Below are positions 13,358 to 16,981 of a stretch of 25,774 bases of DNA, piece by piece (the stretch's first letter is position 1; the number at the start of each line of letters is the position of its first letter). Below the pieces are notes generated by a model that had not been told where the DNA came from, ran no database searches, and saw nothing but the letters and a program-made list of their open reading frames with translations. Source of the stretch: Myxococcota bacterium (GTDB lineage: Bacteria > Myxococcota_A > UBA796 > GCA-2862545); assembly GCA_039208735.1 (NCBI GenBank), contig JBCCQY010000133.1:1-25774 (forward strand). Reading direction: 5' to 3'. The position numbers were made by a program, and so were the translations under genes.

Positions 13358-14704
13358 ATGTTTCGCCGCATCCTAATGGCCAACCGAGGTGAAGTGGCCG
13401 CGCGGGTCCTCCGCACCTGCCAGCGCCTGGGGATCGAAATGGTCGCGGTCGCGAGCGCGGCGGACCGGGAAGCCAAGTGGCTTGCAGATGCCGATGCCGT
13501 GGTCACGATCGGTCCCGCCGCAGCATCGGGCTCCTATCTGCACGCCGAGACCTTGATCGAAGTCGCCCTCCACCATGGCTGTGCAGCGATTCATCCAGGG
13601 TGGGGCTTCCTTTCCGAGAATGCCCGCTTCGCGACGCAGTGCGAGGCCGCGGGACTCACGTTCATTGGCCCCAACCCGCGCCACCTGCGCGAGATGGGCG
13701 ACAAGGCATTGGCGCGCGCCACCATGAAGACCCTCGGGCTACCGCTCATTCCAGGCTCTGACGGACCGTTGAGCGACGTCAATGATGCCAAACGGGTCCT
13801 GGAGAAGGTCGGCACACCAGCGCTCCTCAAGGCCGTTTCAGGCGGCGGAGGGCGGGGCATGCGAAGGGTCGACCACGCCGACCAACTCGAAGCCGCGTTC
13901 TCCGAGGCCCAGGCCGAGGCCACATCGGCCTTCGGCGACCCCCGGCTCTACCTCGAACGGCGCATCGTGGGCGGCCGGCACGTCGAGATCCAGGTGCTCG
14001 GCGATCGCTATGGCCATGCACTAGCGCTCGGCGAACGCGAGTGCTCGCTGCAGCGCCGTCACCAAAAGGTCCTCGAGGAAGCCCCCTCGCCGGGACTCTC
14101 CGCCGATGTTCGCCATGAGATCTTGCCCCTCATTTCGCATGCGATGGGGGAGGCTCGGTACGAGGGTGCCGGCACCGTCGAGATGCTGCTCGATGAAACC
14201 GGTGCACTGTACTTCATGGAAATGAACACCCGACTGCAGGTTGAACACCCGGTCACCGAGCAAATCACAGGCCTCGACCTGGTGGAGCAACAGCTGCGCA
14301 TCGCAGCCAACGAGCCTCTTTCGTTGACCGCGGAGGATGTGCAGGTCTCGGGTCACGCCATCGAGTGCCGCATCAACGCCGAGGATCCCGACCAGGGCTT
14401 CCGACCCAGCCCCGGTGTGGTGACGGCCCTGTCGTTCCCCGAAGCAGACCACGTTCGCGTCGATACCCACCTGCGTTCGGGCGACCGCATCCCGCCCAAC
14501 TACGATTCGCTGATTGCCAAGCTGATCGTGACAGGACCCGACCGCGAGACTGCAATTGCTCGCCTCGACGGGGTCCTCGCGCAGGTGCAAATCGAAGGAG
14601 TGACCACCAACGTGTCGCTCCACCAACGCATCGTGCGTTGGGACGGCTTCGTGTCAGGCCAGTACGACATCAACTCCCTCGAAACCGAGGTCATGGGAGG
14701 CTAA
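13358..14704 (+). CDS. accC: Stand-alone biotin carboxylase (AccC-like), second copy
   Basis: ILMANRGEVA, HPGWGFLSEN, GGGGRGMR, ERECSLQRRHQK, EMNTRLQVEH, YDSLIAKLI; 448 aa. Confidence 0.93.
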   Translation: MFRRILMANRGEVAARVLRTCQRLGIEMVAVASAADREAKWLADADAVVTIGPAAASGSYLHAETLIEVALHHGCAAIHPGWGFLSENARFATQCEAAGLTFIGPNPRHLREMGDKALARATMKTLGLPLIPGSDGPLSDVNDAKRVLEKVGTPALLKAVSGGGGRGMRRVDHADQLEAAFSEAQAEATSAFGDPRLYLERRIVGGRHVEIQVLGDRYGHALALGERECSLQRRHQKVLEEAPSPGLSADVRHEILPLISHAMGEARYEGAGTVEMLLDETGALYFMEMNTRLQVEHPVTEQITGLDLVEQQLRIAANEPLSLTAEDVQVSGHAIECRINAEDPDQGFRPSPGVVTALSFPEADHVRVDTHLRSGDRIPPNYDSLIAKLIVTGPDRETAIARLDGVLAQVQIEGVTTNVSLHQRIVRWDGFVSGQYDINSLETEVMGG

Positions 14705-16981
14705 GTGGCGCGTCTCACTCTTCGTCCGTTGGGAACGCCACTCGAAGGCCTGCTATCGCCCGACGATGCCTCGGCACGCCGTGACCACATGCAGGCCCTC
14801 GACCAGGCGCTCCAGGAAAAGATCACCACCGTCAAAGCGGGATGGGGCGAAAAGTACGTCGACCGGGTCCATGAGAAGGGCAAGCTCACCACCGCAGAGC
14901 GGCTGGAAGCACTGCTCGACGAGGACTCCCCCTGGCTTTCGCTCAACACGCTCGTCAACTGGGGCCGGACGTTCGAAGGCAGCAAGCGACAAGCGCCGGG
15001 TGCCGGGGTGTGGACGGGGCTTGGCCGTGTCGAAGGCCGCTGGGTCGTGGTCGTCGCCAACGACAACACCGTGGCAAGCGGTGCGTGGTGGCCCCTCACC
15101 CCCGAGAAGATCGAACGCGCCCAACAGGTCGCGGAGCGGTTGCGGCTCCCCGTTGTCTACCTTGTCGACTGCTCGGGCTTGTTCCTACCCGAACAGAGCC
15201 GGTCGTTCTCGGGCCTGACCGGAGCGGGTCACATCTTCACGAAGAACGCGCGCCTTGCGGCAGCCGGGGTCCCGCAATTGGCTGGGGTGTTCGGGGATTG
15301 CATCGCCGGCGGTGGCTATATGCCGATCATCAGTGACCGTGTGGTGATGACCGAGCAGGCCTACATGGTCATCGCGGGCGCGGCCCTCATCAAGGGCGCC
15401 AAATCACAGCACCTCACCTCCCTCGACATTGGTGGTCCTGAGGTCCATGTCCACCAAAGCGGGTGTGCTGACGTCCGGGTGCCCGACGATCCCACTGCAT
15501 TGCGACTGCTGCGGGAAGAGGTCGCCAAGCTGCCTGGGTCGGCCGTCGACTTCTACCGTCACGGAGCGACGCCCGAACCCCCGGCTCATCCTCCGCATGA
15601 ACTTTCGGCGCTGTTCCCCTCCGATCCCCGCGAGACCTACAGCATCGAAGAGGTCTTGGCCCGCCTGGTCGACGGTTCCCTGTTCCATGAGGTGCTCGCC
15701 CATACCGGCCGCGAGATGATCACGGGCGTGGCCCGTATCGATGGCTTGTGGGTGGGGCTGATTGCCAATCGGCAGGGCATCATTGAGGAACCGGGCCGCG
15801 GTCGCCGCGCGGGGGGCGTGCTGTACCGCGAAGGCATCGCCAAGATCAGTACCTTCGCCCGGGCCTGCAACGAAGATGGCATCCCGCTGGTGTGGCTCCA
15901 AGACATCTCGGGGTTCGACATTGGTGTGCAGGCCGAGCAGTACGGCTTGCTCGGCTACGGGAGCAACCTGATCTACGCCAACAGCACGGTCTCGGTACCG
16001 GTGTTTACCGTGCTCCTCCGTAAGGCAAGCGGAGCGGGGTACTACGCGATGTCCGGGCTGCCCTATGAGCCCGTGCTTCAGCTGGCTACGCCGTTGTCCC
16101 GGCTAGCCGTGATGGAAGGTCGCACGCTTGCGATCGCGGCGTTCAACTCGAAGCTCGACGACGACTTCGAGATCAAGACGACCGACCCTGCCGAGCGCGC
16201 GGAAATCGAGGCGGGCATGGCCCAAACCGCCGCCCGCATCGAAGCCGACATGGATCCGGTCCGCGCCGCTTCTACCATGGACACCGACGAGATCGTGCCG
16301 CTGGCCAACCTCCGGGATTGGCTTGTCGCGCTGGTCCAGAGCGCCTGGCAAAGCATGGGGTACCGACGAACGAAGAACCCCCGAATCTGGAGCCTTCACG
16401 ACCTCGCAGTGTTGGCGCCTCCATTGCCGACCGAAGCCTCGCCGCGCGCCGAGGCGACCGTGGATGACGATGGTGCCTTACGATCGCCGGCCGTAGGGAC
16501 GTTCACCCCGACGGTGGGGGGCCTCGTCCAACCGGGTCAGGTGTTCGGGCACCTGCAACGCGCCGGGGGCACGGTGGCGCTCGTAGCGCCTCCCAATGCG
16601 ACGGGCGTCCCCACCGACGTGGTGCCCGCGGGCCAGTGGGTCGAATACGGCGCTCCACTCCTCCGGCTTGCCGCCGGAGCCGAGGGCATTGCGTTCACCA
16701 CAGGCCCGGCCGAGGTGGCCTCCGATGCACCGGAGGGCACGACCGTAGTGCGGGCTGAGACAGACGGGGCGTTCTACGCTCGTGCAGAACCCTCGAAGCC
16801 GCCCTTCGTCTCGGAAGGCGATTCCGTAGCCATCAACACCACCCTCGGCCTGGTCGAGGTCATGAAGACGTTCACCCCCGTAAAGTCTCCCGTGGCCGGG
16901 CGGGTGGTGAAGGTCGTGGCCAGCGACGGTGCCGCCGTTTCACAGGGCGATGCCCTCGTGTGGATCGAGCCGGCCGACTAA
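14705..16981 (+). CDS. Acyl-CoA carboxyltransferase (GcdA/MCC-beta-like) fused to a degenerate and an intact biotinyl domain
   Basis: CT motifs [62 protein letters not shown]. Then RSPAVGTF...[10 protein letters not shown] (no Lys) and [15 protein letters not shown]...EVMKTF (Lys at 16865). GTG directly follows the accC stop. Confidence 0.9.

Follow-up and report, generated by a model that had tools for sequence, protein, structure and literature searches.

The stretch of DNA analysed here (the window) comprises 25,774 bp with ~63% G+C on contig C133 of a 9.4-Mb, 288-contig metagenome-assembled genome (MAG) of a Myxococcota bacterium, for which contamination is estimated at 6.15%. It encodes a predicted two-gene biotin enzyme. 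The first gene (13358..14704, +) encodes a biotin carboxylase (BC) subunit of 448 aa, whose TAA stop codon (14702-14704) is directly followed by the GTG start codon (14705) of a 758-aa protein that ends at 16981; both open reading frames (ORFs) lie in one frame, with this single TAA between them. The 758-aa protein is a fusion of a carboxyltransferase (CT) domain placed in the clade of the glutaconyl-CoA decarboxylase alpha subunit, GcdA (residues 1-570, 14705..16414, +), a predicted lysine-less domain resembling a biotin carboxyl carrier protein (BCCP; residues ~581-656, 16445..16672, +), a predicted flexible linker (residues ~657-679, 16673..16741, +), and a true BCCP domain (residues ~680-756, 16742..16981 including the stop codon, +), which carries the biotinyl lysine K721 (codon 16865-16867). 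The two abutting ORFs are exactly as described in an earlier note on this DNA, which was made from the sequence alone. In support of the start at 14705, 40 homologues have theirs at the same residue, M1 being nearly invariant in the alignment. Neither protein has any predicted hydrophobic segment.

Screening the 448-aa protein with Pfam identified Biotin_carb_N, CPSase_L_D2 (ATP-grasp), and Biotin_carb_C; the protein has neither a BT domain nor a BCCP. It scored 601 bits, just over the cut-off of 597, with NCBIfam NF006367, a generic subfamily named for the biotin carboxylase of acetyl-CoA carboxylase (ACC), and its identity to the genome's three further BCs is 44-50%. The alignment columns that are invariant in 34 BCs of the family include K116, K158, H208, E275, E288, N290, R292, and R338, which we take to be the counterparts of the catalytic residues of E. 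coli BC. We found relatives of the system at 80 loci in the phyla Myxococcota and Planctomycetota, one of them (L033) in the cultured bacterium Saltatorellus ferox Poly30. At 67 of these 80 loci, a BC gene lies directly upstream of the CT gene on the same strand; at the others, it lies 0.5-3.4 kb off (four loci), none was seen (five), or the upstream DNA is too short (four). Eight further Myxococcota loci have an adjacent BC (five), a BC 0.7 kb away (one), or none that was seen (two). An intact ATP-grasp BC is thus kept beside the CT across two phyla, in agreement with the pairing of the CT with an ATP-dependent BC that had been claimed for the window.

The second of the two carrier-like domains is matched by Biotin_lipoyl (PF00364, residues 694-753, 45.9 bits), and NCBIfam NF005457 scores 72.7 bits with the BCCP part of the fusion protein. 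The residues E718-V719-M720-K721 (VEVMK721T) are invariant in 41 sequences, namely the window and 40 full-length homologues. A full-length AlphaFold model, with a mean predicted local distance difference test (pLDDT) of 79.7, comprises the CT (1-570), a first beta domain (581-656), a linker (659-672) with pLDDT below 50 that we read as disordered, and the BCCP (680-756). The Pfam scan of the first beta domain (~581-656) was empty even at an E-value of 10, and BLASTP found no similarity between it and the second domain. Yet in an alignment of 38 sequences, the first domain keeps a BCCP-like SPxVGxF...PG...G pattern, with no lysine at the biotinylation turn (the E-x-M-K-M site). Modelled alone with AlphaFold2, it reached a pLDDT of 88.6, and a Foldseek search with this model returned BCCP/biotinyl domains as its six best and most of its top rows, e.g., the BCCP of P. 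horikoshii, E. coli BCCP, and Arabidopsis BCCP1. Template modelling scores normalised by the target (TMt) were 0.65-0.79 against stand-alone BCCP domains; the best E-value was 2e-3, so that no row passes 1e-3. From the model and the residue pattern, we read the first beta domain as a lysine-less pseudo-BCCP. The plural "biotin-carrier domains" of the earlier note therefore holds for the fold, which both domains appear to share, but not for the function, as only the last one has the biotinyl lysine. Searches with tblastn found the two-domain pseudo-BCCP/BCCP module in fused and unfused relatives alike; the first domain is missing only in a subgroup with short fusions.

The CT domain is matched by Carboxyl_trans (PF01039), the two-lobed crotonase-fold CT family, over residues 55-552 (376.7 bits, profile positions 2-483 of 493). 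NCBIfam has no specific model for it, the best being mmdA with 264 bits against a cut-off of 999. In phmmer searches against PDB sequences, the highest scores were obtained with the beta subunit of 3-methylcrotonyl-CoA carboxylase (MCC) 9tps (288.8 bits; the same sequence as 9tqc and 9tqg, entries titled L. pneumophila MCC), M. tuberculosis AccD1 (276 bits), GcdA 1pix (267.4 bits), and P. aeruginosa MccB (265.2 bits). HMMER and MAFFT alignments unmasked several features that the window has in common with GcdA only: an insert before GGxLYRxG, the WxQDxxGxDxG..AE..LLG block, the LRKASGA motif, and a helix at the C-terminus that aligns as far as residue ~550. The motifs from which a likeness to GcdA had been proposed are present in the translation and fit GcdA better than MccB wherever these alignments reach.

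For a phylogeny, relatives were drawn from a scan of 1.84 billion representatives, which gave a graded series. A quick tree of 62 rows was replaced by a careful maximum-likelihood tree (IQ-TREE) of 32 rows; of the 30 rows dropped, four had long branches (the genome's own C285, P0179, P0247, and P0241) and the rest were redundant members of their clades, while a fifth long-branch row, P0144, was retained. The careful tree is divided by a split with a support of 100/100. On one side are the window family (five rows), an unnamed sister group (five rows), P0144, and two GcdA anchors, one nearly identical to C. symbiosum GcdA (P0162, 1133 bits with 3gf3) and one that scores 475 bits (P0296). On the other side are the MccB clade with the MccB of the genome's own liu cluster, the clade of PccB (the beta subunit of propionyl-CoA carboxylase, PCC) with the genome's PccB-like CT, and P0147. 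A representative of the sister group, P0131, has only GcdA among its matches above 1e-60. An approximately unbiased (AU) test rejects the window family and the MccB clade as one group (delta log-likelihood 160, p 8.5e-7), a group that was defined after the tree was seen.

Structural comparison points in the same direction. The five best Foldseek hits of the full model are GcdA chains (E 4e-44 to 7e-43, TMt 0.83-0.86), with MCC beta subunits just behind, whereas PCC, 12S, and AccD5 structures reach a TMt of only ~0.40-0.42 with a root mean square deviation of ~24 Å; the model thus has the lobe arrangement of the MCC/GcdA type. The residue aligned with the Asp of the "GCLD" motif of the genome's PccB is a Tyr in the window and in GcdA and a Phe or Gln in rows of the MccB clade. 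This Asp is presumably PccB D422 (PDB 3iav is titled "PccB D422V"). By sequence placement, the CT groups with GcdA, away from MccB and PccB. The phylogeny proposed earlier thus sets the CT outside the MccB and PccB clades, and the tree, the AU test, the insert and C-terminal helix, and the Foldseek hits together favour the original view of a GcdA-like CT over one like MccB, PccB, or AccD.

Members of the unnamed sister family were also seen in two Myxococcota genomes (L096:5354-7054, - strand; L097:3470-5146, - strand). These CTs have 558-566 aa, are 42-43% identical, and lie among unrelated genes, several of them housekeeping genes, and neither adjoins a BC or BCCP gene; in one of the genomes, a solitary OadB is found close to the end of a contig. 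Such lone CTs tell nothing firm about the window family.

The components found in biotin-dependent carboxylases are all present at the locus: an ATP-grasp BC, a domain with a biotinyl lysine, and a PF01039 CT. Taking the analyses together, we consider it probable that the BC and the GcdA-clade CT with its own carrier form an ATP-dependent acyl-CoA carboxylase, which would likely γ-carboxylate a short 2-enoyl-CoA, for instance crotonyl-CoA. As in biotin carboxylases generally, the BC would use MgATP and bicarbonate to carboxylate the biotin on K721, the disordered linker (659-672) would let the BCCP domain swing over to the active site of the CT, and the CT would transfer the carboxyl group to the acyl-CoA. 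Clade membership suggests a 2-enoyl-CoA carboxylated at the γ-carbon as the acceptor, because GcdA and the neighbouring MCC and geranyl-CoA carboxylase (GCC) all act at the γ-carbon of α,β-unsaturated acyl-CoAs. More speculatively, the lysine-less BCCP-like domain, which most family members possess, may serve as a docking or regulatory module and may replace the BT domain that the BC is without.

Several observations weigh against this assignment. The substrate is read from the tree position, its sole basis, and the activity is a predicted one. Raw sequence scores slightly favour MCC beta (288.8 and 276 bits) over GcdA (267.4 bits), the names given to relatives by NCBI and JGI call them MCC-beta or PCC, and a 19-residue insert of the two GcdA anchors is missing from the window family. 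At seven of the 84 loci with sufficient upstream DNA, there is no BC nearby. No consistent CoA-pathway neighbour emerged in 11 scanned loci (nine labelled Planctomycetota/Planctomycetaceae and two Myxococcota/Deltaproteobacteria) and the eight further Myxococcota loci: the Planctomycetota neighbours are unrelated housekeeping genes, and the other Myxococcota neighbourhoods differ from one another. Finally, the Myxococcota operon sits in a block with genes for methylmalonyl-CoA mutase, a cobalamin adenosyltransferase, an AAA-like ATPase, Lgt, and an Rce1-like protein, which could hint at a link to propionate or methylmalonyl metabolism.

That link would suit an α-carboxylase for short saturated acyl-CoAs (acetyl-, propionyl-, or butyryl-CoA), i.e., a third ACC/PCC-like enzyme that perhaps feeds the neighbouring B12-dependent mutase, and this is the alternative that survives best, although we regard it as unlikely. 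The Myxococcota block with the mutase and the adenosyltransferase also includes a PccA-like gene, NCBI labels several relatives "propionyl-CoA carboxylase", and archaeal acetyl/propionyl-CoA carboxylases have a comparable layout, with separate BC and BCCP and a PccB-type single-chain CT in place of AccA/AccD halves. However, the archaeal CT is PccB-like, whereas the one described here is GcdA-like and its carrier gene adds the lysine-less BCCP-like domain. The tree sets the CT well apart from the PccB clade, PCC-type structures superpose with a TMt of only ~0.4, and a Tyr, as in GcdA, takes the place of the PccB Asp. The mutase/adenosyltransferase block is missing from the Planctomycetota loci. 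Moreover, the genome already has a PccB-like CT (contig C261), a PccA-like alpha subunit (in the window), and AccA, AccD, and AccC, with a biotinyl-domain ORF adjacent to the latter.

Improbable, too, is a second MCC (or GCC), that is, an MCC isozyme with an unusual subunit split. It would account for the top phmmer scores, which belong to MCC beta subunits (9tps/9tqc of L. pneumophila MCC, AccD1, and 3u9r), for the label "MCC beta subunit" that JGI gives to many relatives, and for the fold arrangement of the MCC/GcdA type. But the tree and the AU test exclude the CT from the MccB clade, and, unlike MccA, the BC has neither a BT nor a BCCP domain. The genome also has a liu cluster on contig C14 with MccB, acyl-CoA dehydrogenase, enoyl-CoA hydratase, and MccA; given that it already has MCC and PCC, the enzyme is not a spare copy of either.

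The distribution of the family likewise argues against an MCC isozyme. In an even sample of 301 Myxococcota genomes, in which the CT family was called at ≥59% identity, 93 genomes carry it, nearly always in a single copy. Carriage follows lineage: the family is present in all members of the lineages f1 (18/18), f2 (10/10), and f24 (18/18) and in none of f17 (0/26), f19 (0/23), and f30 (0/18). An MccB-like protein (E ≤1e-130 against the genome's MccB) was found in 184 of the 301 genomes, and the two do not complement each other, as both occur in 18/18 genomes of f24, while 22/23 genomes of f19 have MccB and 0/23 the CT family. Five Planctomycetota with the operon each have exactly four CT matches (PccB-like, window family, AccA, and AccD) and three BCs. 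No MccB-type CT was found in these five, and no 3-hydroxy-3-methylglutaryl-CoA (HMG-CoA) lyase passes the NCBIfam cut-off in any of them (0/5). None has a close homologue of the isovaleryl-CoA dehydrogenase of our genome either, the identity of the best-matching acyl-CoA dehydrogenase being only 34-36%. In those five Planctomycetota, the enzyme cannot be part of the standard leucine pathway.

Apart from these carboxylases, the genome has a fourth, very divergent single-chain CT of 559 aa (C285:1217-2896, +; L004), which sits on an end branch of 2.5 in the tree and adjoins a fatty-acid desaturase gene on a 3.2-kb contig.

A decarboxylase or transcarboxylase, in which GcdA chemistry would run in the decarboxylating direction with a membrane subunit elsewhere or another acceptor and the BC would be incidental, is very improbable. 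What speaks for it is that the nearest characterised relatives of the CT are decarboxylase alpha subunits, that the genome does have one OAD_beta gene, and that the unnamed sister family of two Myxococcota has no BC or BCCP neighbour, with an OadB in one of the genomes. We found no OAD_beta (PF03977) membrane subunit in the window, in line with the earlier report that a GcdB partner is absent from it. A genome-wide search for OadB/GcdB did find one homologue, but it follows an OadA and not a member of the CT family: this single OAD_beta gene lies at the start of contig C117, directly after the end of a protein whose 188 C-terminal residues bear a BCCP of its own, and a PYC_OADA domain lies at the start of contig C166. 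We read the two pieces (C166:11-328, -, and C117:3-1705, +; L010 and L015) as one OadA-OadB locus broken over two contig ends, and the position of the OadB directly behind the OadA C-terminus means that it is already accounted for. Nor does OAD_beta co-occur with the CT family, as good matches are present in 13 of the 93 carrier genomes and 41 of the 208 others. The BC stands beside the CT in two phyla with its catalytic-type residues invariant, which disfavours the soluble decarboxylase/transcarboxylase that the earlier note had offered as an alternative; neither the BC nor the CT-BCCP protein has a predicted hydrophobic segment, and no 5S-type partner was seen among the flanking genes scanned. 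The enzyme is not a sodium-pump decarboxylase.

The carrier is movable relative to the CT. Sixty-seven of the 80 loci could be read through from the CT start, the other 13 being cut by a contig end. Fifty-one of them have a separate CT gene (~575 aa) and a carrier gene of ~190 aa; the next ORF (175-226 aa) bears the VMKT motif in 50 of these 51. In the remaining 16 (the window not counted), the carrier is fused: 12 proteins have 753-773 aa like that of the window, and four have 668-679 aa and are without the pseudo-BCCP. On a FastTree phylogeny of the CT parts, the fused/split label needs six changes, at least three of which are forced by well-supported branches, and each of the window's six nearest rows is a fusion. 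The CT-BCCP fusion is therefore real, but it does not define the system; it is the less common form of a three-gene BC-CT-BCCP operon. The survey of CT-BCCP architecture and of synteny with accC proposed at the outset showed that the BC-CT-BCCP gene order is kept in Myxococcota and Planctomycetota. That two separate genes were joined only through an assembly error or a frameshift, as the split genes in most relatives (51/67) and the contamination estimate of the MAG might suggest, is hardly credible and ruled out by the 12 long and four short fusions in other assemblies, by the six fused nearest rows, and by Logan contigs that span the junction gap-free, both from the probable source run (16144-17100, 0 differences, 0 gaps) and from another study (16364-16740, 11 substitutions, 0 gaps).

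Open frames of up to 1488 aa in relatives, which appeared to be BC-CT-BCCP single chains, were rejected as high-GC artefacts with the BC and CT matches in different frames. In a protein atlas, other clusters combine a CT with Biotin_lipoyl, in Actinomycetota (~606 aa; clusters of 285, 76, and 75 members) and in Pseudomonadota (660-715 aa), and the architecture as such is therefore not unique. One of these clusters is labelled "Unannotated", and the rest have generic automatic names only.

To our knowledge, biotin-dependent acyl-CoA carboxylases form a short, well-mapped list (ACC, PCC, MCC, GCC, and LCC/YCC), and we know the GcdA-type transferase lineage otherwise only from sodium-pumping decarboxylases. 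The operon most likely encodes a biotin-dependent acyl-CoA carboxylase that is built on a transferase of the GcdA lineage and has a movable carrier gene and a built-in pseudo-carrier. In the full-text literature searched, whose coverage leaves out most subscription journals, we found no paper that deals with the family or with any ATP-dependent carboxylase of the GcdA type, and the sole mention of "CT-BCCP" there, in PMC3199775, concerns split pyruvate carboxylase.

The resemblance to GcdA (PDB 1pix and 3gf3) is that of a shared CT clade (100/100), the insert before GGxLYRxG, the WxQDxxGxDxG..AE..LLG block, the C-terminal helix, and the best structural matches. As outlined in PMC7145394, GcdA acts together with the membrane subunit GcdB and with GcdC and GcdD as a Na+ pump that has no BC. 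The conserved partner of the window family, in contrast, is a BC, and OadB/GcdB does not co-occur. Furthermore, identity to GcdA is only ~29%, the 19-residue insert of the GcdA anchors is missing in the window, and the carrier, whether part of the CT protein or the product of the following gene, is preceded by a lysine-less BCCP-like domain except in the short fusions.

MCC and GCC (MccB/MccA and AtuC/AtuF) carboxylate the γ-carbon of branched 2-enoyl-CoAs, according to the account in PMC4673880. They are likewise ATP-dependent biotin enzymes, with the same arrangement of the CT N- and C-domains (TMt 0.83-0.86) and similar scores. Their CTs nevertheless form separate clades, and they have BCCP and BT on the BC subunit, whereas in the window family the BC is bare and the BCCP lies on or after the CT; a canonical MCC is encoded elsewhere in the genome. 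In two-subunit pyruvate carboxylase and OadA, the CT chain ends in a BCCP, and the BC (or OadB) is a chain of its own (PMC5059739 and PMC3199775). The same logic of a BCCP on the CT applies here, but the CT of those enzymes is of the unrelated TIM-barrel pyruvate/oxaloacetate type, and the present one is a crotonase-fold acyl-CoA CT (PF01039). A parallel for the pseudo-carrier is provided by plant BADC proteins, free-standing lysine-less BCCP homologues that are said to inhibit plastid ACCase (bioRxiv 10.1101/634550). Both are modules of the BCCP fold without a biotinyl lysine; here, the module stands in one chain with a true BCCP.

With crotonyl-CoA as the substrate and glutaconyl-CoA as the product, the enzyme would reverse the half-reaction of GcdA given in PMC7145394. 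A more specific proposal, which we put forward only tentatively as a possibility, is that the family is an unrecognised housekeeping ATP-dependent 2-enoyl-CoA γ-carboxylase that would run this GcdA chemistry uphill, is present as a single copy in about one third of the sampled Myxococcota and in many Planctomycetota, and would be assembled via a lysine-less "decoy" BCCP that docks or regulates the bare BC. If true, this would provide a new carboxylase for pathway engineering and would reveal an unknown route into C5-dicarboxyl-CoA metabolism in both phyla. The predicted acyl-CoA carboxylase would in any case extend the list of carboxylases by another family, widespread in two phyla, and the identity of its substrate would expose an unassigned CO2-fixing step in both phyla. 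The tandem pseudo-BCCP/BCCP and a carrier that has repeatedly been fused to and split from the CT also represent a natural test of how carriers may be tethered and docked without a BT domain.

The window encodes further proteins around the carboxylase. Upstream, the PccA-like alpha subunit occupies two overlapping frames on the + strand, with a BC part at 6423-7934 (503 aa) and a BT+BCCP part at 7840-8448 (202 aa); the change of frame reflects a frameshift or else a natural split. It is not peculiar to the assembly, because positions 6663-11448 are also spanned by a Logan contig from the probable source run, with one substitution and no gap. The region at 8441-11526 (+) encodes the catalytic chain of methylmalonyl-CoA mutase (546 aa), in which Pfam finds no B12-binding domain, and then a protein of 475 aa whose sole match is a weak one to AAA_16. 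This pair recurs upstream of the carboxylase at two other loci (L016 and L017), and the 475-aa gene alone at two more (L056 and L071).

Downstream are two paralogues without a Pfam family (16929/17014-17888 and 17933-18835, + strand), which have hydrophobic N-termini that resemble signal peptides by eye and C-terminal hydrophobic segments. They are kept just behind the carboxylase at many Myxococcota loci but not in Planctomycetota. We set them aside as probably unrelated envelope proteins that are not needed for it.

Several MAG records with related loci are titled "uncultured Enterobacteriaceae" or "Enterobacterales" (L016, L018, L073, L082, L083, and others), yet their CTs cluster with Myxococcota rows, that of L016 being 91% identical to the CT of the window. 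Similarly, a Planctomycetota-like locus (L035) is titled Paracoccaceae. These records are probably mislabelled bins.

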